A stretch of DNA of 64,000 bases, taken from NCBI GenBank assembly GCA_045105615.1, contig JBGCDS010000027.1, positions 3,036 through 67,035 of the forward strand. The letters run 5' to 3'. This DNA comes from Gammaproteobacteria bacterium (GTDB lineage: Bacteria > Pseudomonadota > Gammaproteobacteria > UBA4575). A program made the position numbers and the translations under genes. Below, piece by piece: positions 1,882-45,916 of the stretch (positions are counted from its first letter, which is position 1; each line of letters opens with the position of its first letter). The notes beneath the pieces were generated by a model, which was not told where the DNA came from, made no database searches, and was given only the letters and a program-made list of their open reading frames with translations.

Positions 1882-3045
1882 GTGACCAGTATCAAACAAG
1901 CCATTCAATATGGTCGCGAGTTATTAACCAATAAAGTCTACAACCCTCAGCAGGAAGCATCCCTCCTACTTGGATACAGCATCAATAAAACTAAAGAGTT
2001 CTTAATTTCTCATTCTGATGAATCAATCAGCGAGATTTCATTTCAACACTACCAAGCATATCTATCACGTCGTGCCAAAGGGGAGCCCATCGCCTATATT
2101 CAGCAACAAAAAGAATTTTGGTCGCTAGATTTAAAAGTAACTCCCGCAGTATTAATCCCTCGGCCAGAAACAGAATTAATTATTGAAATCGCCCTTCAGC
2201 TTTTACAAGGGAAAAATCATGCGAACATTCTAGATCTAGGCACCGGCAGTGGTTGCATTGCACTAGCAATCGCAAAAGAAAAACCTGATGCGCTTATTAC
2301 TGCCTGTGACAACTCTTCGGATTGTATTGATATTGCTAAAATTAATGCACAAAAACACGCACTTGATAACATTACCTTTATCACCAGCAATTGGTTTCAG
2401 TCAGTAGACACTAATAACTTCGATATCATTATCAGCAATCCACCTTACATCTCTAATGATGACGAGGATATTGAATACGGAGTACAAAAATACGAGCCTA
2501 AGCCTGCACTATTCTCGAGCAGACAAGGATTAGAAGATTTATTTCACATTATAAATCACGCACCTAATTATTTATCTTCTAACGGGACATTATTAGTTGA
2601 GCACGGTTATAAACAAGGCAACGATGTTCGCACACAGTTTAGTAAATGCGGTTACAATAACGTTCAGACTTTACATGACATACAACAACTTGAACGCGTT
2701 ACCCAAGGAACGGCGGCTAAATTAATGGACCTAAAAACTGACGAAGACGGATTCTTACTTGACCCAGAAGATTGGGATGAAGATTTCGCATTATCTACCG
2801 CTAAAGAAACAGAGTTAGAATTAAATCAAGATCATTGGCGCGTCATTCATATGATACGTCAACTTTATTCCGACTCTGGCGTGGTTCCTGAGCTGCGTAC
2901 TATTCTAAAAAATTTACGTCAAGAGATAGGTAAAGATAACGCAACACGAAAATATGTGTATGCATTATTCCCATATGGCTACGGTCAACAGGGTTGCAAA
3001 ATTGCTGGCATGCGCAAACCACTGAAACTATGGTTAGATCTATAA
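1882..3045 (+). CDS. prmC: release-factor glutamine methyltransferase PrmC/HemK (res 1-~278, NPPY motif) fused in frame to a ~109-aa TusE/DsrC-family domain
   Basis: GTG start; LDLGTGSGCIA SAM motif, ISNPPYI motif; C-terminal MDLKTDEDGFLLDPEDW...HWRVIHMIRQLY...RKYVYALFPYG..GCKIAGMRKP matches TusE/DsrC architecture but ends LKLWLDL (no penultimate Cys). Confidence 0.8.
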   Translation: MTSIKQAIQYGRELLTNKVYNPQQEASLLLGYSINKTKEFLISHSDESISEISFQHYQAYLSRRAKGEPIAYIQQQKEFWSLDLKVTPAVLIPRPETELIIEIALQLLQGKNHANILDLGTGSGCIALAIAKEKPDALITACDNSSDCIDIAKINAQKHALDNITFITSNWFQSVDTNNFDIIISNPPYISNDDEDIEYGVQKYEPKPALFSSRQGLEDLFHIINHAPNYLSSNGTLLVEHGYKQGNDVRTQFSKCGYNNVQTLHDIQQLERVTQGTAAKLMDLKTDEDGFLLDPEDWDEDFALSTAKETELELNQDHWRVIHMIRQLYSDSGVVPELRTILKNLRQEIGKDNATRKYVYALFPYGYGQQGCKIAGMRKPLKLWLDL

Positions 3046-7049: not shown

Positions 7050-7119
7050 ACACTCAACTAATACTACATAGATGTATTAATAAGAGAGATTCTTTGTAAT
7101 TTCACTAGCGAGGTGAATC

Positions 7120-7569
7120 ATGGAAAATATAAGCGAGCAAACAAGACACATCTTAAAAGATACTGAACATCTTCTATGGGAAAAACAAGTCGAAGTCACG
7201 ACTCGAATGTATGAGATATTGTTTGAAAAATATCCTGAGACCAAAAATTTATTCCAGAGGTTTCGCTCGCATCAACCTAATATGTTTGCGGCTGCACTTA
7301 TGGCTCATATGATGAGCTTAGACGAACCTGAAGAGCTTCTTAGCTTACGGGTTGGTATATGCCGCAACCACGTTATTGCTGGCGTTAAAGAAGAACATTA
7401 CCCCATGCTGGCAGATGCATTGATCTCAGCTATGAGAGAACTACTATCTGAGCAGATGGATGAAAACACTATCGCTGCCTGGGAAAAATGGTACTACTTT
7501 CTTGCCAATCTCCTTATTGAGAGAGAAAGAGATCATTACCAGGAAAAGCATCTACTATTTCCTAAATAA
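7120..7569 (+). CDS. single-domain globin (Vgb/Hmp globin-domain-like)
   Basis: 149 aa; alignable to flavohaemoglobin globin domain (..YPETKNLFQ.. / ..WEKWYYFLANLLIERERDHY). Confidence 0.7.
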   Translation: MENISEQTRHILKDTEHLLWEKQVEVTTRMYEILFEKYPETKNLFQRFRSHQPNMFAAALMAHMMSLDEPEELLSLRVGICRNHVIAGVKEEHYPMLADALISAMRELLSEQMDENTIAAWEKWYYFLANLLIERERDHYQEKHLLFPK

Positions 7570-18523: not shown

Positions 18524-19948
18524 CTATGACTTGCCTGATGGATTAGTATATTGATCATTAAGTTTCTGAACAAAGCCATCAGCAGAATCACGTAGTTCGC
18601 TAATTTTATCCATCGCTTTTTGATCCCATCCAGCTAAGCGCCCAAATAATACACTCTTAAACCAACGCGTATTCTTTAGGAATGCTGCTCGCAAATTTCC
18701 ATAGTAACCATCCTCCGCTAAGCCGCGCGCATACCATTTAGCAATAGCGCCTCTAACAATAAAATGCACCAATACAAATACAGCGGCAATAGCAATTAAC
18801 AACACATTAGACATCACACCACCATAGCCATCTGCCGGCATACCTGGAATAGCAAAGCTAAATCCCTTCCAATAGCCATGAGAAATTGTGTACGACAAGA
18901 AAAAAATAAATAACGGAATTAGCACAATGACATCCGCAATCAGCACACGTTTTTTCCACACACTAACTGCTGTTTGCAACTCAGGAACTATTTCTTTTTC
19001 AATGCGATTTGAAAAATTCTCTAGTGCACCAATAATCCTATAAGCACGCTCAACACTTACCTGTGCAATACGTTTAGTAATTTCATGCAAATCAGCATCA
19101 CGCTTGCGTTTATATCTCTCTTCTAAGCCTGGGTCTTCAATTTTAACTGCCGCATCTTTATTATACAAAGTATGGAAGCTGCCGCTAACTAAGCCACCTT
19201 GAGCAATGGCGCGTTGCCATGCTGCGACTACATCCTCTAGATTATCTTCTGCTGCAGTGGTATCAATTTGATTCAAGATAAACATTATCTTATTGGCATC
19301 TTTGCGCCGTACTGTGCCAGCAACCAAGTGTTCCAAAGTATCTCTCATTGCGCCAGGCTCTGGATGTCTGGCATCAAAAAATACCAACACTAAATCAGAA
19401 AGATTAATAATATGATCTGTTATACGTAATGTTGAGTCCCTCTGAGAATCAGCATCAAATCCTGGTGAGTCAATCAAGATTTTGCCTCGCATAACATCAG
19501 TAGGACAGGTTTTTAATTGCAGATAAGTATCAATTCTTGAACCTTCACCTTCAGCTACTTTATCAATTGCTTCACTCATTTGATAAAATGGGAAACGCGG
19601 ATCCGCGTCCAACGCTATTCCGGGCAATACACGCACAGTGTCATCACTGCTAAAACAAAGCACAGTAAACTTATCATCGACGGCTTGGTTCCCCGTCTTC
19701 TGAATAGTGTCACCCACATACTGGTTTATAAAGCTCGACTTCCCTGCCGAGAATGTCCCCAAAATTGAGATCAGAGGCCACCATGAGATTTCTGTCGTGT
19801 ATGAGTCACGTGCATTCAACACACCTAAGCCCAAACCTACCTCATCTAGCTCAATAAATTTATCCACAACAGAGACCAACAGTGGACTCTCTTGCTCTAA
19901 ATGTTTTTGCAGGCTTTTTATCCGATCAGTTGTAATCTTATCTTGCAT
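18524..19948 (-). CDS. dynamin-family GTPase with two C-terminal transmembrane segments
   Basis: G1 GTFSAGKSSFIN, G3 IDSPGFD, G4-like NQID; hydrophobic stretches VLIADVIVLIPLFIFFL and VLLIAIAAVFVLVHFIV. Confidence 0.65.
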   Translation of the reverse strand: MQDKITTDRIKSLQKHLEQESPLLVSVVDKFIELDEVGLGLGVLNARDSYTTEISWWPLISILGTFSAGKSSFINQYVGDTIQKTGNQAVDDKFTVLCFSSDDTVRVLPGIALDADPRFPFYQMSEAIDKVAEGEGSRIDTYLQLKTCPTDVMRGKILIDSPGFDADSQRDSTLRITDHIINLSDLVLVFFDARHPEPGAMRDTLEHLVAGTVRRKDANKIMFILNQIDTTAAEDNLEDVVAAWQRAIAQGGLVSGSFHTLYNKDAAVKIEDPGLEERYKRKRDADLHEITKRIAQVSVERAYRIIGALENFSNRIEKEIVPELQTAVSVWKKRVLIADVIVLIPLFIFFLSYTISHGYWKGFSFAIPGMPADGYGGVMSNVLLIAIAAVFVLVHFIVRGAIAKWYARGLAEDGYYGNLRAAFLKNTRWFKSVLFGRLAGWDQKAMDKISELRDSADGFVQKLNDQYTNPSGKS

Positions 19949-29305: not shown

Positions 29306-30514
29306 CTATATCTTATGTACGACTCTATAAACATTCTTTTTAGAGTGTTTTTCCTGACGTAAATTTTCTTCTACAGCCAACGAATATTGGCTGATCTCTA
29401 CCGCCGATTCAATACTTCGCGCGGCGATAGCAGAGTGATAAAACACTTCTCCAATGTCAGCTACCATGGCATCTAAGTCAGCTATATCTGCATGATTTTC
29501 TGTCATATCCTCATGCACAATTAATACACTCCTATCATCAAGATGAGACCAGGCATTCTGCAGTAACTGCTTGTATTGCTCAGCACTTATTTTTGAGTAC
29601 AGACCACTCACTACCACCACATTATGAGCCCCTTCAAAGGCAACTTCACTAATATTGGCATAGCTCATTTGATGCAGATCTTGAGTATGTGCAGAAAAAT
29701 AACGAGAAATACTATTGGCTAAATCATTATCAACTTCACCAATATGCCAACTATGTGCATTCTGCACATTAACCAGGGAAGACAAAATCACATCGTTAGA
29801 TAGCATTCCATAATCAGCACCCACATGTAGCATAGAGCATGACTGTTTCTTACCTAGGTATTGGCTAATAATTCTTTCCGTGACCGCACTGGCTGCATAT
29901 TCATTCCAAATTGTTTTACATAGAGGAATAAAAGCTTGCTTGATATGCGTATTAATATCGCCACCAAACTTACCTGATTGCAGACTTGCTAACAAAAGAT
30001 TGCTGCGCTCTTTAAAGAACCATTCAATACTACTTGGCATAGGTGTAGGCCATTTTCTGCCTACTCGAATAGACATGACACCATCATTTTCAGCGGTGAT
30101 ATTACTAAATCCAGTCCACCGTTCACGACTCAAGAATATATTCTCAAGAAAACTACGTGACCAGAAATCTTTCTCAGCTGCCTGCCCCTCAGGATAAACC
30201 GGCACAATAATTGAGCCACCTGGTTTCAAGTGTTTCAACAGCTCTAAAATAAAAGAAGTACCCCAATGATTGGCAAACAAAGACACACTGATACCAATAT
30301 AAATTCTGTCTAATGCATCTGGTAGTAGAGGATAGAAAAAATTACCCACCCTGCTATCTGAAAAATCCATCTCAATATGCTCGCTAAATGGAGTCATACT
30401 GTAGATCGACTGATCGGGGCGTACTTGATTATTTTTATCGCGCTCACCTGAAAAATAATATTCGAGATCTTCTTCTATATATTCTTCACCGAGATGTAAA
30501 ACCACCTGACTCAT
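29306..30514 (-). CDS. hypothetical protein with two tandem methyltransferase-like halves
   Basis: 402 aa; second half has LHVGADYG / VVVVSGLY / LIVHED motifs; first half degenerate (LKPGGSIIVPV). Confidence 0.45.
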   Translation of the reverse strand: MSQVVLHLGEEYIEEDLEYYFSGERDKNNQVRPDQSIYSMTPFSEHIEMDFSDSRVGNFFYPLLPDALDRIYIGISVSLFANHWGTSFILELLKHLKPGGSIIVPVYPEGQAAEKDFWSRSFLENIFLSRERWTGFSNITAENDGVMSIRVGRKWPTPMPSSIEWFFKERSNLLLASLQSGKFGGDINTHIKQAFIPLCKTIWNEYAASAVTERIISQYLGKKQSCSMLHVGADYGMLSNDVILSSLVNVQNAHSWHIGEVDNDLANSISRYFSAHTQDLHQMSYANISEVAFEGAHNVVVVSGLYSKISAEQYKQLLQNAWSHLDDRSVLIVHEDMTENHADIADLDAMVADIGEVFYHSAIAARSIESAVEISQYSLAVEENLRQEKHSKKNVYRVVHKI

Positions 30515-36457: not shown

Positions 36458-36829
36458 TCATTTATTGATCTTACACACCTGATTTTTCTTATATCGCCAG
36501 TCAGCAAAACGCTTATAGAAAAAATCCAATAAAGCAATCAGCTTGAATTTAGTCACGACAAATCCAAGCACTCTATAATACTTCAGAGAATTCCATATCA
36601 ATGCAAAAGCAGCTGCACCTGTAACGATAGTGCCATCACTATGTACCGCATGAATCCGCCTAAGTAATGTTTCTTTACTGAACCCATAATGTTGAATATC
36701 ATCCCATGACGAATTAATACCCAGCCAATGAATATCATGTAATGGCTTTAATTTTTTATAATGCTCAATTTCGGCATCACAAAGTGGGCATGCATCATCA
36801 TAAAATACAATATGCGGGTTTGTACTCAA
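36458..36829 (-). CDS. thiol-disulfide oxidoreductase DCC family (DUF393)
   Basis: VFYDDACPLCDAEIEHY motif. Confidence 0.7.
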   Translation of the reverse strand: MSTNPHIVFYDDACPLCDAEIEHYKKLKPLHDIHWLGINSSWDDIQHYGFSKETLLRRIHAVHSDGTIVTGAAAFALIWNSLKYYRVLGFVVTKFKLIALLDFFYKRFADWRYKKNQVCKINK

Positions 36830-36846: not shown

Positions 36847-37857
36847 TTATAAATCTAGTGTTACTCGAAGACCAGACTTATTTTCTACAAGTTGAATATT
36901 TGCGTCATGCAATTCCAATACAGCGCTGACCAAACTCAAACCTAAACCAGCACCCTGCTGTGACTGTTGACTTGGGTCGCGATAAAATCGCTCAAATACT
37001 TTGTGCCTAGATTCTAGAGGTATTCCAGGGCCGTTGTCATCAATATGTACTTTACACCCCCGCTTATAGGGCTCCATTTTAACATTGATCACACCACCCT
37101 CAGAGGTGAATTTAATCGCGTTATCCAGCAAATTAGCGATCACTTGAAACATTAGATCTCGATCACCAATATAAGATGCCGGCTGCGTTTTTATCGTTAT
37201 GCACTGGCTTTTTTCTTGTGCAAGCGGGTCATATAACCCTACTGCATCTTCAATCAGTTTTTGCAAATCAAACTCAACAAACTTAAGGGGTTGACGGCCC
37301 GACTCAATACTAGAAAGACTAAGCAGCGAATTGAACGTCTTAAGCAAACCATCGACTTCAGTCACAAGCTGCTCATCCTGCTGAGCGTCCAATTTATTTC
37401 TCAATCGCGCCAAGGGTGTACGCAAATCATGCGCGATAGTATCAGTTATATGTTGCACACCAGACATTAGCTTTTCTATCTTGTCTAACATACTGTTCAA
37501 CACCTGGGACAAAAAACTCAAATCATCCCAGCGAGAATCTACCTTCAAGCGCTTTGTTAAATCGCCCGTCGACATAATTTCATCCGCAGTATCTGCGATA
37601 CGGTTAATTCGCGTCACAACAAAAATACTAATAAGGTAGCCAGCAATCACTAACATTAACAACGGCACGACACCAGCAATAATTAATACCACTACAACAT
37701 TTTGAGAATCATCACTAGTAGACTGCAAATAGAAATACAACGCAGCACTCAAACAAGCCGTTGAAAACAATAACAACAACAAGAATAAATTAGCCACCTT
37801 AAAACTCGAGCTCTTCTTATACTCTCTAGCAATCTTCAATGATGTATCCTGAACCAC
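36847..37857 (-). CDS. sensor histidine kinase (two TM, HisKA HDLRTPLARL, HATPase_c)
   Basis: 336 aa; H-box and G-boxes (DNGPGIP); overlaps RR gene. Confidence 0.85.
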   Translation of the reverse strand: MVQDTSLKIAREYKKSSSFKVANLFLLLLLFSTACLSAALYFYLQSTSDDSQNVVVVLIIAGVVPLLMLVIAGYLISIFVVTRINRIADTADEIMSTGDLTKRLKVDSRWDDLSFLSQVLNSMLDKIEKLMSGVQHITDTIAHDLRTPLARLRNKLDAQQDEQLVTEVDGLLKTFNSLLSLSSIESGRQPLKFVEFDLQKLIEDAVGLYDPLAQEKSQCITIKTQPASYIGDRDLMFQVIANLLDNAIKFTSEGGVINVKMEPYKRGCKVHIDDNGPGIPLESRHKVFERFYRDPSQQSQQGAGLGLSLVSAVLELHDANIQLVENKSGLRVTLDL

Positions 37858-38503
37858 GCTTGGTTTTAATTAAGTACTGAGGATCATCCTGGTCGATTTT
37901 ATGCCTAAGCCTGCTAACATGAACGTCAATCACATTGGTTTGCGGATCAAAATGGTAATCCCAAACATACTCAAGCAACATAGTGCGAGTAACAACCTGT
38001 CCTTTATTACGCAGCAAATACTCTAGCAATCTAAACTCGGTAGCCTGCAAAACAATTTCTTTATTACCGCGATTTGCTTCCCTCTTAAGCAAATCTAATT
38101 CTACATCACGCGCATGCAGCACTGTTTCAGATTCAGCTGCATGCTGGTTTCTTCGATACAACGCTTCTATTCGTGCAGTTAACTCAGAAAATGCAAATGG
38201 CTTCACGAGATAATCATCACCGCCTGACCGCAGACCTTTTACCCGGTCATCCACCTCTCCTAACGCACTAAAAATAAGTATTGGTGTTAAGTTGCCAGCA
38301 CCACGCAGTGTTTTTGTAATAGTTAGACCGTCCACCTCAGGCAACATACGATCAATCAGCATTACATCGTATTGCTCAGTTGTTGCCAGAAACAGACCAT
38401 CTCTACCATTCACAGTCACGTCAACGACGTGGCCATCCTCTGTCAAACCTTTCTGCAGGTAATCCAGTAATTCCTGATCATCTTCGATACATAATATTCG
38501 CAT
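37826..38503 (-). CDS. OmpR/PhoB-family response regulator
   Basis: REC domain (ILCIEDD...DRMLP) + winged-helix (VSRLRHKID...IKTKRGSGY). Confidence 0.9.
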   Translation of the reverse strand: MRILCIEDDQELLDYLQKGLTEDGHVVDVTVNGRDGLFLATTEQYDVMLIDRMLPEVDGLTITKTLRGAGNLTPILIFSALGEVDDRVKGLRSGGDDYLVKPFAFSELTARIEALYRRNQHAAESETVLHARDVELDLLKREANRGNKEIVLQATEFRLLEYLLRNKGQVVTRTMLLEYVWDYHFDPQTNVIDVHVSRLRHKIDQDDPQYLIKTKRGSGYIIEDC

Positions 38504-38582
38504 AACAGTGAGGCAGTTTATAGCAAGCCAGAATTTTATTCGATATCACCAATAATAGTGAATATGCCCATAGCTCAACATA

Positions 38583-38614
38583 AACCCAACATTAAATATA
38601 TTTAATGTTGGGTT
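38583..38614. promoter_or_regulatory. 32-bp perfect palindrome between response-regulator gene and cfa-like cluster
   Basis: aacccaacattaaatatatttaatgttgggtt is its own reverse complement. Confidence 0.6.
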
Positions 38615-38674: not shown

Positions 38675-39229
38675 ATGAATAAATTTGATTTATTGTTTTT
38701 GGTATTCATGCTTTGCTTTGCTAACAACAGCATTGCCGAGAAAGAAATAGTGGGTGAGTTACCCGAAATAGTTTCCAATCAATGGAACGTAACTGAAAAA
38801 AAAGGCGATACACGATTCAAAAAATTAGGCCTGCATATTTACGATGCTTCTTTATGGTCACTTGCTGATAGCAAAACACTAGAGCATTCTACTAACGCAA
38901 CTGCTTTATCGATAATTTATGCACGAAACATTAAAGCGCATCGATTATTGTCCAGTACACATAAAGAATGGAAACATCTTGGATTTGCACATCAGCACCC
39001 ATTAGATGCATGGTTAGATGCACTAGAAAATATATGGCCCGATATCAAGGATGGTGATTATCTAGTTTTTGTCAACTACCACGATGGTAACAACGCATTT
39101 TATTCTGGCACCAAGCTTCTTGGCAGCATCAATGATTCGACATTTGGCTCGGCCTTCTTGGATATTTGGCTAAACAAAAACGCCCGATATCAAAAACATA
39201 GAAAGGAGTTAATCGGTGAGAAAATATGA
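38675..39229 (+). CDS. chalcone-isomerase-like family exported protein
   Basis: start at MNKFDLL (signal peptide); family commonly found in cfa/DUF1365 clusters; ORF-track start 38636 judged extension. Confidence 0.5.
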   Translation: MNKFDLLFLVFMLCFANNSIAEKEIVGELPEIVSNQWNVTEKKGDTRFKKLGLHIYDASLWSLADSKTLEHSTNATALSIIYARNIKAHRLLSSTHKEWKHLGFAHQHPLDAWLDALENIWPDIKDGDYLVFVNYHDGNNAFYSGTKLLGSINDSTFGSAFLDIWLNKNARYQKHRKELIGEKI

Positions 39230-39767
39230 TTTTCGACTAATATTATTAGCCATTGCTCTCAGCGTCTCGTTATCCGCCTGTAGCACCACACTTGACGAAT
39301 ACGAGAACACAGCACCAGAATTCGATTTGCAGCAGTTCTTCACTGGAGAACTAAAAGGCTGGGGTCTAGTTAAAGACTGGCAAGGCAAGGTCACTCAACG
39401 TTTTAGTGTAGCGCTTGATGGAAAGTGGGAGCAAAACAAAGGCACTCTTTATGAATTATTCACCTATTCAGACGGCAGATCCCAAGAGCGCATCTGGCAA
39501 TTAGAAAAACTCAAAGATGGTAAAAGCCTCGGCCGAGCTAATGATGTGGTTGGAGACGCCAATGGAAAACAAGAGGGTTTTGCTTTCAACTGGTCCTACC
39601 AATTATTAGTAGATACTAAAAATGGCCCCATAGCAGTGAATTTAAACGACTGGATTTATCAAATAGACAGTCATGCGCTTGTTAGTGAAGCTCAGATTAA
39701 AAAATTCGGCTTCAATGTTGGTGAAGTACTCGTTTTCATCGTCAAACAGGATCAAAAAAATGGATGA
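39216..39767 (+). CDS. DUF3833-family lipoprotein
   Basis: lipobox LSAC; FFTGELKGWGLVKDWQGKV... Confidence 0.6.
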   Translation: MRKYDFRLILLAIALSVSLSACSTTLDEYENTAPEFDLQQFFTGELKGWGLVKDWQGKVTQRFSVALDGKWEQNKGTLYELFTYSDGRSQERIWQLEKLKDGKSLGRANDVVGDANGKQEGFAFNWSYQLLVDTKNGPIAVNLNDWIYQIDSHALVSEAQIKKFGFNVGEVLVFIVKQDQKNG

Positions 39768-40185
39768 CAAACTCATCACAAGCTTCGTAGATGACATGAA
39801 CTCACTATCAAAAAACAATATCAGTGAAGTATTAGAAAAAGTCTATACCGACGAAATTGAATTCATTGATCCCGTCAAAGGCATCCATGGCTTGGACGAC
39901 CTTACTAGCTACTTTGCAGGCTTATACAAAAGCGTAGATCATTGCCACTTTACTATTAACAACTACATTCCCCACGGAGATCTACACTCTATAGAATGGA
40001 AAATGAAACTCAAGCATCAAAAGTTAGCAAAAAATAAAGAAATCACTTTAGATGGTGCATCATTTATTCGCTTTAAAGACAACAAAGTATGCTATCACCG
40101 CGATTACTATGACCTTGGCGCATTGATATACGAAAGAATTCCTATTTTAGGCTCAGCAGTAAGGATGGTGCGTAATGCTTTCTAA
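39760..40185 (+). CDS. SnoaL/NTF2-like fold protein
   Basis: start at MDDKL overlapping upstream stop; ~140 aa NTF2-like. Confidence 0.5.
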   Translation: MDDKLITSFVDDMNSLSKNNISEVLEKVYTDEIEFIDPVKGIHGLDDLTSYFAGLYKSVDHCHFTINNYIPHGDLHSIEWKMKLKHQKLAKNKEITLDGASFIRFKDNKVCYHRDYYDLGALIYERIPILGSAVRMVRNAF

Positions 40186-40960
40186 CAAAGTCATTAATTA
40201 TTTCGATGACAAGGTTATTTGGATTACTGGCGCCTCATCAGGCATAGGTCGCGCATTAACGATCAGCTTATCCAGCATAGACTGCGAGATTTATATCTCA
40301 TCACGTTCACAGGCTAAGTTACAGGAAACAAAATCATTGTGTGAAAACCAAAATAACATTCACATCTTAGAAGGAGATCTAACTGAAAAGGCATGCAATC
40401 AATCAATCAGCGAAAGCATTAAAAACAAAAATGGTCATTTAGATATTGCAATTTTAAACGCAGGCACATGTGAATATGTTGATATAGACCAATTTGATAG
40501 CGCACTTTTCCAGCGCGTCATTAATAGCAACTACATGAGCATTATCTATGGCATAGAAGCTACTCTACCACTCCTCAAACAGTCTAATAATGCACATCTA
40601 GTCGGCATGAGTAGTACAGCCGCTTATTTAGGCCTACCTCGCTCAGAAGCATATGGTGCAAGTAAAGCAGCAATTCTTAATTTATTCAGGGCGTTAAAAG
40701 TTAGCATGATTCCATACAATATTGAGGTATCTACAATATGCCCTGGGTTCGTTAAAACAGAACTTACAGATAAAAATAACTTCCCGATGCCATGCTTAAT
40801 CGGCTCGAATCAAGCTTCTGAAGAAATATTAAAAGGCATTGCTAGCAAAAAGCATGAGATCCACTTCCCCAAGAGATTTAGCTACGCATTAAAGGCTATC
40901 TCATTTTTACCTGATTTCATTCAATTCAGACTATTAAGTAAAACAATACAGAAATCATGA
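40175..40960 (+). CDS. short-chain dehydrogenase/reductase (SDR)
   Basis: TGASSGIGRA Rossmann motif; YGASKAA catalytic motif. Confidence 0.8.
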   Translation: MLSNKVINYFDDKVIWITGASSGIGRALTISLSSIDCEIYISSRSQAKLQETKSLCENQNNIHILEGDLTEKACNQSISESIKNKNGHLDIAILNAGTCEYVDIDQFDSALFQRVINSNYMSIIYGIEATLPLLKQSNNAHLVGMSSTAAYLGLPRSEAYGASKAAILNLFRALKVSMIPYNIEVSTICPGFVKTELTDKNNFPMPCLIGSNQASEEILKGIASKKHEIHFPKRFSYALKAISFLPDFIQFRLLSKTIQKS

Positions 40961-42243
40961 AAATTGCCATTATAGGTTCAGGCATCTCAGGCCTAACCAT
41001 TGCACATCATTTGCATCATGACCATGATATTCATGTGTTTGAAAAAAATAGTTATGTCGGCGGCCACTCGAATACTATCGATGTTAACGAAGGTGATACT
41101 AACGTTGCAATTGATACTGGGTTCATTGTTCTAAACGACTGGACTTACCCCAACTTCGAAGCATTACTAAAATCATTAAAAGTCGAAGTGGAAAACTCTG
41201 AAATGAGTTTTTCGGCTAAATGCGAACTCAGTAAATTCGAGTGGTGCGGGAAAGGTATTCAAGGCCTCGCCTTAAACAGAAACAACTGGTATCGCATTAA
41301 GTCATACCAAATATTATTTGATTTTTTACGCTTCAATAAATTAGCTAAAAATCTCATCACTAAAAATAACTCCCAACTAACATTAGGAGAGTTTCTAAAA
41401 CAAAACAATTTCACTAAAGCATTCACAAAATATTACATATTACCTATGGGAGCGGCTATATGGTCTTCATCAACTGAAGATATATACGACTATCCAGCTC
41501 ATAGCTTTTTAGCATTCTTCAACAACCATGGACTACTTAATATAAAAATCAGACCCCAATGGAAAACCATAGTTGGCGGCTCTAGACAGTATGTAAACAA
41601 ACTGATCCAACCATTCTCAGGAAATATATCGCTAGATTCTACTATCACCCATATTGAACGTAATAATGACAAAGTCGTTATCCACCATCAGAGCAAATCT
41701 CCCGACATGTTTGATCATGTCATTTTTGCCTGTCATAGCGATCAAGCATTAGCGTTACTTATACAACCATCTCATGATGAGCAAAAAACTTTAGAGAAAA
41801 TCAGGTATCAATACAACGAAGCTGTATTACATACAGATGAAGACTTAATGCCAAGCAACAAAAAATCCTGGTGCGCCTGGAATTATTTACTACCAAAACA
41901 AGAAGACACATGCGCCAAAGTCACTTATTACATGAATCGTTTACAGCCGCTACAGACAAAAAATAATTATTTCGTCTCACTGAACTTAACTGACCGAATT
42001 AATCCAGAAAAAATTATTAGAACAATTAGCTATCAACACCCTGTATTTGACAAGCCCGCAATAGATGCGCAGAAAAATCTAAAGCTCCTTAATGGAAAGC
42101 ATAATACTTGGTTTTGTGGTGCTTACTGGAGAAATGGCTTTCACGAAGATGGTGTCTGGAGCGCACTAACAACCCTAAAACAATTCAAACACGAGGTTAG
42201 CAACGCTGATGATAAACAGCTGCATTTACAAAGGGCAAGTTAG
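40957..42243 (+). CDS. FAD-dependent amine-oxidase-like oxidoreductase (UfaD-like candidate)
   Basis: IAIIGSGISGL dinucleotide motif; 428 aa. Confidence 0.7.
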   Translation: MKIAIIGSGISGLTIAHHLHHDHDIHVFEKNSYVGGHSNTIDVNEGDTNVAIDTGFIVLNDWTYPNFEALLKSLKVEVENSEMSFSAKCELSKFEWCGKGIQGLALNRNNWYRIKSYQILFDFLRFNKLAKNLITKNNSQLTLGEFLKQNNFTKAFTKYYILPMGAAIWSSSTEDIYDYPAHSFLAFFNNHGLLNIKIRPQWKTIVGGSRQYVNKLIQPFSGNISLDSTITHIERNNDKVVIHHQSKSPDMFDHVIFACHSDQALALLIQPSHDEQKTLEKIRYQYNEAVLHTDEDLMPSNKKSWCAWNYLLPKQEDTCAKVTYYMNRLQPLQTKNNYFVSLNLTDRINPEKIIRTISYQHPVFDKPAIDAQKNLKLLNGKHNTWFCGAYWRNGFHEDGVWSALTTLKQFKHEVSNADDKQLHLQRAS

Positions 42244-42958
42244 TCATCGCCGATTTGAGCCTCGCGCGCACAGTTTTACATATTCACTATTTATGATGTA
42301 TGTAGACTTGGAAGAACTAGATACACTGACCAGCAAACATTCCGCCCTGTCTCACAACAAACCTGGGCTAGCAGCATTTTATAGAAAAGACCACCACGGC
42401 AATGATTCAGAATCATTATCGAATTCAATCCGTTCTCTCGTAAAAGAAAGGACCGGGGACTCTATAGAGGGCTCTATTCGCCTACTCACACACTTTCGCT
42501 ACTTCGGTCATGTCTTCAATCCGATCAGCTTATATTTTTGTTACGACAAACAAAATAAAAATGTGACCCATGTTGTTGCCGAAGTCACGAACACACCTTG
42601 GAAGAAGCAACACTGCTATGTTTTATCAGGGGAAACAAGTGGAAATACCTTCATCACACCCAAACAGCGCAAAGTATTTCATGTGTCGCCATTCATGAAC
42701 ATGGATATGGATTATCGATGGCACATCCAAATACCCAACGAGACCCTTAATGTAAGAATAGAAAACATTAAAGATCAATCAAAGTTATTTGATGCATCAA
42801 TCAACCTTAAGAAACTTGAATTAACTTCCAGCAATATAACTAAGACTCTATTGAATTTCCCCTTGATGACTATAAAGGTTGTTAGCGCAATCCACTTTCA
42901 AGCACTCAAGCTATGGCTAAAAGGGATTAAATACGTACCCCATCCAAAAAATAATTAG
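42209..42958 (+). CDS. DUF1365-family protein (UfaO-like candidate)
   Basis: N-terminus ..IYKGQVSHRRF..; position between FAD oxidase and cfa-like gene. Confidence 0.65.
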   Translation: MINSCIYKGQVSHRRFEPRAHSFTYSLFMMYVDLEELDTLTSKHSALSHNKPGLAAFYRKDHHGNDSESLSNSIRSLVKERTGDSIEGSIRLLTHFRYFGHVFNPISLYFCYDKQNKNVTHVVAEVTNTPWKKQHCYVLSGETSGNTFITPKQRKVFHVSPFMNMDMDYRWHIQIPNETLNVRIENIKDQSKLFDASINLKKLELTSSNITKTLLNFPLMTIKVVSAIHFQALKLWLKGIKYVPHPKNN

Positions 42959-42966
42959 GTAGAACA

Positions 42967-44235
42967 ATGTCTATTATTCCAAATCAAAATAAAAACATAC
43001 AACAAAACTATCAAGGCAACTGGCTTGATAGTATCGCCATGTCTATATTGCTAAAAAAACTAGACAACATTAAAACTGGTCTATTGCAAATCTATGTCGA
43101 CAACATGCTTTACGAATTCGGAAACACCAATAGCAAAAGTGATATTCACGCCGTGATTCGCGTGCAGGACATGAGGGCATTTAGAGCAATCATCACTGGT
43201 GGAGAACCCGCTGCTGGAAAGACCTATATTGACGGCTGGTGGACATCAGATGATTTAATCGAAGTGTTACGTATATTCACTGTAAACAGACATGCATTGT
43301 TTGGTTTCAAGCATGGCGTTGCATCTTTAGCAAAAACTATAAGCCGATTCTCAAATAATATTCTTAGGAACACGTTAAAAGGTTCAAAACGAAACATCAA
43401 AGCCCATTACGATATAGGAAATGACCTATACGAGCTATTCCTAGATGAAAACATGATGTATTCATCTGCTTATTTTCGCAACGAAAACGAAAGCCTGACA
43501 AGCGCATCCGAATACAAACTTAAACTCATCTGCGAGAAATTAGATTTACAAGCTTCAGACAGAGTGATAGAAATTGGCGCCGGCTGGGGAGGCTTCGCTA
43601 TCTATGCAGCCCAAAATTATGGTTGCCATGTAACAACAACGACCATCTCTGACCAACAGTTTGATCATGCAACCGCCAGGGTAAATACATTAAAGTTAAC
43701 GAAACGCATTAACGTTATCAAACAAGACTATCGTGCCCTTTCTGGAAGCTATGACAAATTAGTCTCTATTGAAATGATTGAATCCGTAGGCCATCAATAT
43801 ATGGATAGTTATTTCAGCATTTGCAACAGGTTGCTTAAACCATCAGGCGCAATGCTAATCCAATCTATTACCATGTCCGATTACCTATTTAAAGATTACA
43901 TCAACTCAACAGATTTCATTAGAAAATATGTATTTCCAGGAGGCTGCTTAACTAGCACAAACTCTATGATGTCATCAGTAGCCAAGCATACAGATCTAAC
44001 CCTCTATCATAGCGAAAGCTTTGCATCTAGCTACGCCAGAACCCTCAAAATGTGGCATCAAAACTTTCATAAAAACAAGGACAAGGTCATTGAACTTGGC
44101 TACTCAACAAATTTTATAAGATTGTGGGAATATTATATAAAGTACTGTCAAGCTGGATTCGAGAATAGAATCATTGACGTTCATCACCTGGTGTTAAAAA
44201 AGCCTGACAATCGCTTCAATCACCTTTCAGCCTAA
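42967..44235 (+). CDS. cfa: cyclopropane-fatty-acyl-phospholipid synthase family SAM-dependent methyltransferase (UfaM-like candidate)
   Basis: VIEIGAGWGG SAM motif; 422 aa CFA-synthase architecture. Confidence 0.8.
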   Translation: MSIIPNQNKNIQQNYQGNWLDSIAMSILLKKLDNIKTGLLQIYVDNMLYEFGNTNSKSDIHAVIRVQDMRAFRAIITGGEPAAGKTYIDGWWTSDDLIEVLRIFTVNRHALFGFKHGVASLAKTISRFSNNILRNTLKGSKRNIKAHYDIGNDLYELFLDENMMYSSAYFRNENESLTSASEYKLKLICEKLDLQASDRVIEIGAGWGGFAIYAAQNYGCHVTTTTISDQQFDHATARVNTLKLTKRINVIKQDYRALSGSYDKLVSIEMIESVGHQYMDSYFSICNRLLKPSGAMLIQSITMSDYLFKDYINSTDFIRKYVFPGGCLTSTNSMMSSVAKHTDLTLYHSESFASSYARTLKMWHQNFHKNKDKVIELGYSTNFIRLWEYYIKYCQAGFENRIIDVHHLVLKKPDNRFNHLSA

Positions 44236-44239
44236 CAAA

Positions 44240-44803
44240 ATGAAGCTATCCCCTCATACAGCTTTTTTAATATTTAACTTTCTTGGCTTACAAATCACCT
44301 GGGCCGCATGCGCTTATGGTGCAACAAACTCAATGCCAATTTTAGGCGTGGTAGTTGGACTAATCTATATCGCCTTGCACCTGTTATTAACAAAAGTACG
44401 CAATCAAGATTTATTAATATTATTGACTATTAGCATTATCGGGATAAGCGTAGATCATATAAACACATACTTGGGCTTAATGGCATTCACACCTAACAAC
44501 ACAACACACTCAGTCATTCCATTATGGCTTATAATCTTATGGATGGTATTTTCATTAATGCTGCCACACAGTTTGAACTGGTTAGGAAAAAATACGGCAC
44601 TTTCATTTCTTATCGGCGGCCTTGGCGGCGCAAGTAGTTATTGGCTAGGACACAAACTTAGCGCTATAAGCATATCAGAGCCATTATTATTAAACATTTC
44701 AATTCTATTTATTGAATGGGCAGTTATATGCACTGTTGCCTATCGAATACTAGCATTCATAAGAGCTAAAATATCCAACAAGCAGTTAATAACTAACCCC
44801 TAA
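44240..44803 (+). CDS. DUF2878-family membrane protein
   Basis: 187 aa, 5-6 TM; conserved partner of cfa/DUF1365 clusters. Confidence 0.55.
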
Positions 44804-45421: not shown

Positions 45422-45916
45422 TCACCTTACTAATTGTTTCATGATATTGGACTCACGCTGGAAAAACCCCTTTGTGTGCAACGAATCTTCCAACTGATAA
45501 TACTCATAGTCTAAATGATGACAGAACTCATGCACCAAAGTTCTCAAATAAGTTTTGAACGCAACCACCTGTAGTCTTTTTGCTGTGCGCATCCATACAT
45601 AAATTCTTGCGCGCGGTCGCGACTCATCAACTGGCTCATACAAACCATGCAATTCACTTGCATCGTCATGCGGCCTTCTTTCCAGCACATGTACACGCAC
45701 ATTAGAAGAATTAAGCTGTAAACATATTGCATCAATTAAGTGCTGACTAGACCTTTCAACAAATTGTAAATTTTCCAATGATAGCTGATGATTTATTTCC
45801 TGCGCCATTTGTTGCAGTTCTATTAGCTGATTTAATTTAACTGCAGGCAAGGCATCACTATTCCTGGCTATTTCTTTTTGTGCCCGGGTAAAGCGATTAT
45901 AGCTAGGATAAGCCAT
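45422..45916 (-). CDS. SprT-like zinc metallopeptidase-fold protein
   Basis: LVHEFCHHLDYEYY HExxH; 164 aa. Confidence 0.55.
   Translation of the reverse strand: MAYPSYNRFTRAQKEIARNSDALPAVKLNQLIELQQMAQEINHQLSLENLQFVERSSQHLIDAICLQLNSSNVRVHVLERRPHDDASELHGLYEPVDESRPRARIYVWMRTAKRLQVVAFKTYLRTLVHEFCHHLDYEYYQLEDSLHTKGFFQRESNIMKQLVR

Follow-up and report, generated by a model that had tools for sequence, protein, structure and literature searches.

A putative furan fatty acid operon with an adjoining two-component system in an uncultured marine gammaproteobacterial lineage

What is made by a gene cluster in which an enzyme dependent on flavin adenine dinucleotide (FAD), a DUF1365 protein and a methylase of the cyclopropane synthase family are encoded side by side with five companion proteins, and how is such a cluster controlled? 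This question is raised by a locus in a 64,000-nucleotide stretch of gammaproteobacterial DNA (UBA4575; assembly GCA_045105615.1, contig JBGCDS010000027.1, positions 3,036 to 67,035), which we refer to as the window and whose numbering is used throughout. The original prediction, made from the sequence alone, had interpreted the locus as a nine-gene candidate pathway for furan fatty acids (FuFAs) with extra accessory genes, perhaps under envelope-stress control. Our analysis supports the first part of this interpretation: the cluster appears to be an ordinary example of a widely conserved FuFA operon. We assign a probability of about 0.72 to the reading in which the locus is a monomethyl FuFA operon with conserved companions, placed under a lineage-specific two-component regulator.

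FuFAs are membrane lipids that act as potent radical and singlet-oxygen scavengers and are of nutritional and industrial importance, and the bacterial pathway that produces them was solved only in 2014-2020. Three enzymes build 9M5-FuFA in Rhodobacter sphaeroides: the methylase UfaM (RSP2144, Q3J4I7), which acts on cis-vaccenate; UfaD (RSP1091), which desaturates the methylated chain; and UfaO (RSP1090), a DUF1365 protein that forms the FuFA using O2 (PMC7380195). In Rhodopseudomonas palustris the contiguous genes RPA2571, RPA2570 and RPA2569 (ufaD, ufaO and ufaM) are necessary, and heterologously sufficient, for the formation of 11-methyl-12-trans-18:1 (11Me-12t-18:1), the diene and 9M5-FuFA (PMC7380195). 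In Halomonas sp. YLGW01, ufaM, ufaD and ufaO are consecutive, and E. coli expressing this ufaM produces 11-methyloctadec-12-enoate (PMC12089945). The Pseudomonas syringae locus, controlled by a pair consisting of an extracytoplasmic function (ECF) sigma factor and ChrR, contains phrB and, further along, a short-chain dehydrogenase/reductase (SDR; PSPTO_1119), an amine oxidase (1118), a hypothetical protein (1117) and a cfa gene (1116); these four are the best matches of RSP_1087, 1091, 1090 and 2144, with 39% identity in the case of PSPTO_1116 and UfaM, and RSP_1088 matches a lipoprotein (PMC5507510). As cited in PMC7380195, the work of Shirasaka (1995, 1997) places marine gammaproteobacteria, for example Shewanella putrefaciens, among the FuFA producers.

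The open reading frame (ORF) listing of the window places eight co-directional genes on the plus strand, spanning 38636 or 38675 to 44803 (Table 1), and leaves no space for a ninth. The count of nine was therefore wrong, since the families listed in the original prediction, like the sequence itself, add up to eight. Each of these families was reproduced with Pfam, and the reported overlaps of stops and starts were confirmed. In order, the junctions consist of overlaps of 14 nt (Chalcone_3-like/DUF3833), 8 nt (DUF3833/SnoaL, with SnoaL beginning at 39760, the start called in relative L001), 11 nt (SnoaL/SDR), 4 nt (SDR/FAD enzyme) and 35 nt (FAD enzyme/DUF1365), followed by gaps of 8 nt (DUF1365/CMAS-family methylase) and 4 nt (methylase/DUF2878). 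Overlaps of 4-35 nt and gaps of 4-8 nt are typical of a translationally coupled operon. The same gene order is found in at least 6 independent relatives, with protein identities of 57-88%, and because of this recurrence the arrangement is not due to chance. In one closely related metagenome-assembled genome (MAG), GCA_033344735.1, the identity is 78%.

Table 1. Features of the cluster and of its regulatory region, in window coordinates
Feature	Position	Strand	Evidence
DCC1-like (DUF393) thiol-disulfide oxidoreductase gene, downstream of the kinase gene	36458..36829	-	Pfam DCC1-like 6.4e-24
Sensor histidine kinase	36847..37857	-	Pfam HAMP, HisKA and HATPase domains
OmpR/PhoB-type response regulator, divergent from the cluster	37826..38503	-	Response_reg 2e-24, Trans_reg_C 3.7e-27
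Sigma-70-like promoter candidate TCAACA-16-TATATT	38575..38602	+	Consensus scan; -10 element at the palindrome centre
Palindrome, perfect 32-bp inverted repeat AACCCAACATTAAATA/TATTTAATGTTGGGTT, candidate operator	38583..38614		Repeat search
Chalcone_3-like (chalcone-isomerase-like) protein	38675..39229	+	Pfam PF16036 1.4e-9
DUF3833 lipoprotein; RSP1088 counterpart	39216..39767	+	Pfam DUF3833 2.6e-57; lipobox LSAC, Cys22
SnoaL/NTF2-like protein, 141 aa	39760..40185	+	Pfam SnoaL_2 3.3e-13
SDR; RSP1087 counterpart	40175..40960	+	adh_short 2.5e-40; TGxxxGxG and YxxxK motifs
FAD-dependent amine-oxidase-fold enzyme, UfaD-like (proposed 11Me-12t-18:1 desaturase)	40957..42243	+	Amino_oxidase 4.9e-15, NAD_binding_8 2.4e-14
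DUF1365 protein, UfaO-like (proposed O2-dependent furan-forming enzyme)	42209..42958	+	PF07103 4.4e-82, residues 6-247 of 249
CMAS-family S-adenosylmethionine (SAM) methyltransferase, UfaM-like (proposed cis-vaccenate 11-methyltransferase)	42967..44235	+	PF02353 2.8e-82, residues 140-407
DUF2878 integral membrane protein, final operon gene	44240..44803	+	Pfam 1.2e-35; at least 4 hydrophobic helices

Within this operon, the interpretation of the FAD enzyme, the DUF1365 protein and the methylase as a UfaD-, UfaO- and UfaM-like triad holds, because both the order and the families match the ufa genes of R. palustris and Halomonas. The FAD enzyme combines the two features of the UfaD fold, an N-terminal FAD/NAD(P) Rossmann motif (GSGISG) and an amine-oxidase/phytoene-desaturase-like fold, and its closest solved structure is the amine oxidase LkcE (1.7e-25). 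A search of the Protein Data Bank (PDB) found no sequence relatives of the DUF1365 protein.

DNA probes, taken from the primer sequences in the supplement of PMC7380195, provided a connection to the validated enzymes. The R. sphaeroides ufaD primer (Up-1089-For, which lies inside ufaD) led to 20 loci, mostly alphaproteobacterial and many from Rhodobacteraceae. The genes in these loci are 36-40% identical to the FAD enzyme over at least 94% of its length; a gene of the Pseudoalteromonas cluster described below reaches 48%. In five Rhodobacteraceae loci (L007, L013, L015, L021 and L025) the order is FAD enzyme, DUF1365, a membrane protein (~410 aa) resembling the major facilitator superfamily (MFS), a DUF3833-like protein and an SDR, an arrangement that agrees with the published gene lengths of RSP1091-1087. 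The DUF1365 genes that follow the ufaD homologue in Rhodobacteraceae are 27-32% identical to that of the window over ~96% of the length and share with it the motifs GHVFNP(I/V)S, AEV(T/N)NT and FHVSPF. Identities between the window and the Rhodobacteraceae loci fall in a range like that of the published Pseudomonas-Rhodobacter values (PMC5507510). Homologues of RSP1087, RSP1088, RSP1090, RSP1091 and cfaS, which belong to the sigmaE-ChrR core regulon (Dufour 2008, cited in PMC5507510), are all present in the window.

A few observations concern the probes themselves. The 22-nt ufaD primer matches exactly in 20 species-level genomes (L007-L026), including Chromatiales and one Geminicoccaceae MAG, and such exact matches indicate strong conservation, at the DNA level, of the region encoding the UfaD motif (I/V)TYWMNSL. 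C. sphaeroides itself was not among these 20 matches, and the R. palustris 2570-Rev primer had no match in either the genome contigs or the metagenome contigs.

Direct observation covers which genes are present, their homology and synteny, their sequence signatures, and the linkage of regulator and operator, and from it we propose the following scheme. The CMAS-family enzyme would use SAM to convert cis-vaccenoyl chains to 11-methyl-12-trans-18:1, the FAD enzyme would convert this molecule to the 11-methyl-10t,12t diene, and the DUF1365 protein, which is taken to be a barrel, would insert an oxygen atom derived from O2, so that the furan ring closes to give a product of the 9M5-FuFA type. Synthesis of the monomethyl FuFA would take place on membrane phospholipids, and the companions would bind, move or process FuFA lipids or the products of their oxidation. 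The OmpR-type regulator and its kinase would probably set expression by way of a palindrome that overlaps a promoter-like site. The enzymatic steps, the product and the signal are all inferred, the steps of synthesis by comparison (homology, synteny) with three systems that have been studied by experiment, and the chemistry is borrowed from the Rhodobacter and Rhodopseudomonas work.

Companion genes and the end product

The five companions had been regarded as extra to the pathway. This does not hold, because they form a recurrent and previously annotated set that is found elsewhere, in Pseudoalteromonas, Aeromonas, Azoarcus and Acinetobacter. The Chalcone_3-like protein, whose start is ambiguous (GTG 38636, ATG 38675 or, in the L001 gene call, ATG 38708), has an N-terminus resembling a signal peptide and is predicted to be periplasmic; its identity to the product of the Pseudoalteromonas cluster that is annotated as "chalcone isomerase family protein" is 32%. 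The DUF3833 lipoprotein is 30-36% identical to its counterparts in the Rhodobacteraceae loci, and a protein 100% identical to it is recorded from an uncultured gammaproteobacterial MAG. It had been described as lipocalin-like, and it is indeed a barrel, but one of the 10-stranded nitrobindin/FABP-like type rather than a classical lipocalin. The SnoaL/NTF2-like protein, with a most likely start at 39760 that matches the gene calls of L001-L003, is 40% identical to the NTF2 gene product of the Pseudoalteromonas cluster. The SDR has 26-29% identity to the terminal SDR of the Rhodobacteraceae operons and did not reach the equivalog cut-offs of NCBIfam. Finally, DUF2878 genes directly follow a cfa-like gene also in Aeromonas, Pseudoalteromonas and Plesiomonas.

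What might these proteins do? In-frame deletions of RSP1089, RSP1088 and RSP1087 in R. sphaeroides left the fatty acid profile unchanged (PMC7380195). Two of the five companions, the SDR and the DUF3833 lipoprotein, match genes that are thus dispensable for FuFA synthesis in that organism, and as a group the five are probably ligand-binding or tailoring proteins that are not required for synthesis itself. In three relatives (L004-L006), in the same chromosomal context, the cluster comprises only DUF3429, SnoaL, SDR, FAD enzyme, DUF1365 and CMAS genes. Missing are Chalcone_3, DUF3833, DUF2878 and the two-component system, which shows that accessory genes are gained or lost as modules. The DUF3429 gene with which this reduced cluster starts encodes a membrane protein (positions 7113-7550).

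The presence of so many companions gives rise to the strongest of the competing explanations, namely that the same three enzyme families yield another modified acyl chain as their physiological end product, owing to the action of companion enzymes on the pathway. Such a product might be a methyl-branched conjugated diene, a dimethyl or a hydroxylated/keto derivative, or an FuFA further tailored by the SDR and the NTF2-like protein. The SDR and NTF2 folds are typical of tailoring enzymes, the five companions show translational coupling to the triad and accompany it in more than one bacterial class, and in Acinetobacter an acyl-CoA desaturase, a DUF1295 protein and a second SAM methyltransferase are added, so that the chemistry around the triad evidently varies. 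However, deletion of the R. sphaeroides counterparts of the SDR and the DUF3833 protein, and of the MFS gene, changed neither 9M5-FuFA nor its precursor, the three R. palustris genes are enough to reconstitute 9M5-FuFA, and a substrate has been demonstrated for none of the companions. We therefore regard a different end product as improbable.

A more speculative idea is that FuFA oxidation is reversed by the SDR and the NTF2-like protein, which would reduce the dioxo-ene product and then cyclodehydrate it, so that the furan is regenerated. If this were true, the antioxidant action of the cluster would be catalytic and not sacrificial.

The methylase among CMAS-family enzymes

The second question is whether the methylase is UfaM-like or is instead a cyclopropane synthase. 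It has the CMAS fold with an intact SAM motif (VIEIGAGWGG), and its gene has the ufaD and ufaO homologues for neighbours, an arrangement shared with R. palustris and Halomonas. Its homologues in the clusters of Pseudoalteromonas, Azoarcus and Acinetobacter are 39-47% identical to it. The named entries that match it best are cyclopropane fatty acyl phospholipid synthases (PRK11705, 1.5e-81), and its identity to E. coli Cfa (6bqc, 1.3e-57) is 35%. Nevertheless, it scores below all of the curated NCBIfam cut-offs for Cfa, with 274 bits against a required 400 for PRK11705, 253 against 600 for CPFASynBruc and 211 against 650 for CfaB.

Inspection of the bicarbonate site is informative in this respect. 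The residues E239, I268 and Y317 of E. coli Cfa are conserved in the methylase, but at the positions of G236 and H266, the latter being the bicarbonate-site histidine, it carries E269 and Q299, and in place of the cyclopropane synthase motif GMFEHVG it reads EMIESVG. The glycine and histidine are present in four solved cyclopropane synthases, those of E. coli (Cfa) and L. acidophilus (CFAS, 5z9o), 7qos and CmaA1, whereas MmaA4, a hydroxymycolate synthase that does not cyclopropanate, carries Glu and Gln as the methylase does. The Glu/Gln (E/Q) pair is invariant among the in-cluster CMAS genes from distantly related alpha- and gammaproteobacteria. Among the 150 best representatives of clusters formed at 50% identity, it occurs in 149 of the 149 members that could be aligned at these positions. 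Moreover, 54 of these 150 nearest representatives are DUF1365-CMAS fusions of ~650-690 aa, in which the two domains follow the order of the window genes. E/Q invariance and fusion together indicate, at the level of sequence, that the methylase belongs to a large subfamily tied physically and evolutionarily to DUF1365 and distinct from classical Cfa. The pair may prove to be a marker that divides the CMAS enzymes forming methyl branches (Glu/Gln) from those forming rings (Gly/His).

These data bear on the possibility that the methylase makes cyclopropane (or cyclopropene-related) fatty acids and is served by the FAD and DUF1365 proteins, for which the plant FAD-oxidase-CMAS enzymes offer a precedent. 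Its named matches and the three retained bicarbonate-site residues are what such a reading would predict, and the ufaM-expressing strain of the Halomonas study also showed cyclic fatty acids (PMC12089945). Yet the scores under every Cfa cut-off and the MmaA4-like substitutions oppose it, and the in-cluster homologues that have been tested experimentally make 11-methyl-12-enoate. On balance a cyclopropane synthase is quite unlikely here. The cfa homologue is thus set apart from the bona fide cyclopropane synthases by its low scores and E/Q signature, and its DUF1365 neighbour is homologous to the Rhodobacteraceae counterparts of UfaO, so that the refuting outcome named with the original prediction did not occur.

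A separate candidate identity for the methylase, that of a counterpart of the dispensable RSP1089, was rejected. The position of RSP1089 in Rhodobacteraceae holds the MFS-like membrane protein of ~410 aa, and a primer located inside R. sphaeroides RSP1089 matches this MFS-like gene with one mismatch; RSP1089 is therefore not a methylase.

Regulation and chromosomal context

The upstream two-component system and the palindrome noted in the original prediction are real, conserved and linked to the cluster; envelope stress as the signal is conjecture only. From its sequence and hydropathy, the kinase has two transmembrane helices separated by a loop of ~10 residues and is of the intramembrane-sensing type, and so short a loop implies that sensing takes place within or at the membrane. 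A metagenome scan with an alignment of the kinase yielded nine orthologues at ≥60% identity. All of those located on sufficiently long contigs (L030, L031, L032 and L034) lie divergently beside the same cluster, which is complete in L031 and L034 and runs off the contig end in L030 and L032. The same arrangement of two-component system and cluster is seen in L002 and L003. The response regulator is 75-91% identical in L002, L003 and L030-L034, and in every case it is divergent from the Chalcone_3-like gene.

The 20-bp core of the palindrome, ACATTAAAT(AT)ATTTAATGT, occurs once in the window, where 0.03 occurrences would be expected by chance, and a search for a regulon found no further copies in the 64 kb. 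This core is retained with 0-3 mismatches in L002, L030/31, L032 and L034, and the other intergenic DNA has diverged. Dedicated two-component control through this candidate operator is our best inference. The DCC1-like gene beyond the kinase remains beside the cluster both when the two-component system is present (L002, L028-L032) and when it is absent (L004-L006), and it may be functionally part of the cluster.

A more elaborate version of this regulation, which we consider doubtful, is that a membrane-sensing circuit has replaced the linkage to sigmaE-ChrR, MerR or photolyase, with the kinase detecting FuFA-containing or oxidised lipids and driving the operon through the palindrome. In such a circuit the periplasmic chalcone-isomerase-like protein and the DUF3833 barrel lipoprotein would possibly present lipids to the kinase.

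It might also be argued that adjacency reflects nothing but shared chromosomal ancestry, the two-component system having other targets, since the flanking S9 peptidase, PNP oxidase, msrA, tatD and thiF genes are syntenic in several relatives and local synteny could hold neighbours together; but L003 carries the entire module of two-component system and eight genes in an entirely different chromosomal context, the eight families are reordered in Pseudoalteromonas and occur as subsets in Azoarcus and on an Acinetobacter plasmid, the overlapping stop and start codons indicate co-translation and DUF1365-CMAS fusions exist, so that this explanation is very improbable.

Several points must be set against the interpretation of the locus as an FuFA operon under two-component control. 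The identity of the DUF1365 protein to its Rhodobacteraceae counterparts is low (27-32%), and the comparison with R. sphaeroides and R. palustris runs by way of these unvalidated counterparts and of published identities. The E/Q pair separates the methylase from the cyclopropane synthases in a comparison that covered solved structures, in-cluster homologues and the nearest representatives. Furthermore, 1 of the 150 nearest representatives joins an FAD domain to CMAS, as plant cyclopropane synthases do, and because it too carries E/Q the signature does not prove a methyl-olefin product. With respect to regulation, the palindrome is a candidate operator only, to which the response regulator would bind, and in the promoter/terminator scan the number of sites in this region was at chance level, so that the promoter candidate is suggestive by its position alone. 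Lastly, the usual partners of such clusters are absent from the window: homologues of the ECF sigma factor, ChrR, phrB and DUF523/1722 of Pseudoalteromonas and of the MerR protein of Azoarcus were not found at E≤1e-4, nor was an MFS partner, and the nearby ECF sigma/ChrR pair and photolyase that accompany the sigmaE-ChrR core regulon are accordingly missing.

Among the neighbouring genes, msrA converges on the 3' end of the cluster, and between msrA and tatD lies an ORF on the minus strand (45422-45916, 164 aa) that has no Pfam match and is conserved in L001 and L002. A second minus-strand ORF without a Pfam match is located at 29306-30514 (402 aa), and a dynamin-family GTPase is encoded at 18524-19948, also on the minus strand. 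Directly after prfA, a plus-strand gene (1882-3045, 387 aa) encodes the PrmC_N and MTS methyltransferase domains of a release-factor glutamine methyltransferase followed by a C-terminal DsrC-like domain (PF04358, 1.1e-31), an unusual PrmC-DsrC/TusE-like fusion. Rfam and tRNA scans of the 64-kb window gave no matches.

Comparison with known systems

As a whole, these results add an uncultured marine gammaproteobacterial lineage to the likely FuFA producers. The advance is incremental and leaves the current understanding of the pathway unchanged, and the questions raised, concerning the roles of the companions and the signal of the kinase, are general to the family and not specific to this locus. 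A compact eight-gene version with its own regulator is nonetheless a convenient system in which to find those roles.

The closest parallel in the order of the enzymes is R. palustris CGA009, where RPA2571-RPA2570-RPA2569 represent the same three contiguous families in the same FAD, DUF1365, CMAS order. R. palustris is an alphaproteobacterium, and it possesses FufM, used for dimethyl FuFA, to which nothing in the window corresponds. The chemistry of the pathway and its role in protection from singlet oxygen were defined in R. sphaeroides (Cereibacter), where RSP1091-1087 combine UfaD, UfaO, a DUF3833-type lipoprotein (RSP1088) and an SDR (RSP1087) in one operon, as in the window. In that operon, however, the third gene encodes an MFS-like membrane protein and Chalcone_3, NTF2 and DUF2878 genes are lacking, while ufaM is unlinked and located beside a photolyase gene, in contrast to the in-cluster methylase of the window. 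Control in R. sphaeroides is by the ECF sigma factor sigmaE and its anti-sigma factor ChrR, neither of which is encoded in the window.

Gammaproteobacterial versions are known from Halomonas, in which UfaM alone was assayed, and from Aeromonas. In Aeromonas salmonicida a riboflavin-repressed predicted operon, NTF2-SDR-FAD-DUF1365-cfa-DUF2878 (AXA69_RS13645-13670), has been described and called functionally uncharacterised (PMC10012899); it lacks Chalcone_3, DUF3833 and the two-component system. All eight families are found, co-directionally and with 28-48% identity to the window, on the chromid of Pseudoalteromonas sp. Bsw20308 (D172_RS19610-19665, annotated only), in the order ECF sigma, ChrR, DUF523/1722, phrB, NTF2, SDR, FAD, DUF1365, CFA-family, DUF2878, chalcone isomerase family and DUF3833. 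There, Chalcone_3 and DUF3833 end the array, whereas in the window they start it, and no two-component system is present. The Azoarcus cluster consists of a MerR gene and, in this order, FAD, DUF1365, CFA, chalcone isomerase, MFS, DUF3833, SDR and NTF2 genes.

The sole other case that we have seen with a two-component system is plasmid p1AsACE of Acinetobacter schindleri (annotated only), on which FAD-DUF1365-CFA genes are accompanied by a HAMP kinase, a response regulator, a chalcone isomerase and an NTF2 gene. Its kinase is 23% identical to that of the window and is differently arranged, and the plasmid locus, which is near a photolyase gene, additionally encodes a lipocalin and the acyl-CoA desaturase, DUF1295 protein and second SAM methyltransferase mentioned above. 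What distinguishes the lineage studied here is its regulation, in which a two-component system stands in place of the light- and singlet-oxygen-responsive regulators. The pathway can apparently be wired to a two-component system rather than to light-responsive regulators, and this wiring suggests that the stresses countered by FuFAs are probably oxidative or membrane-related and independent of light and photosynthesis.

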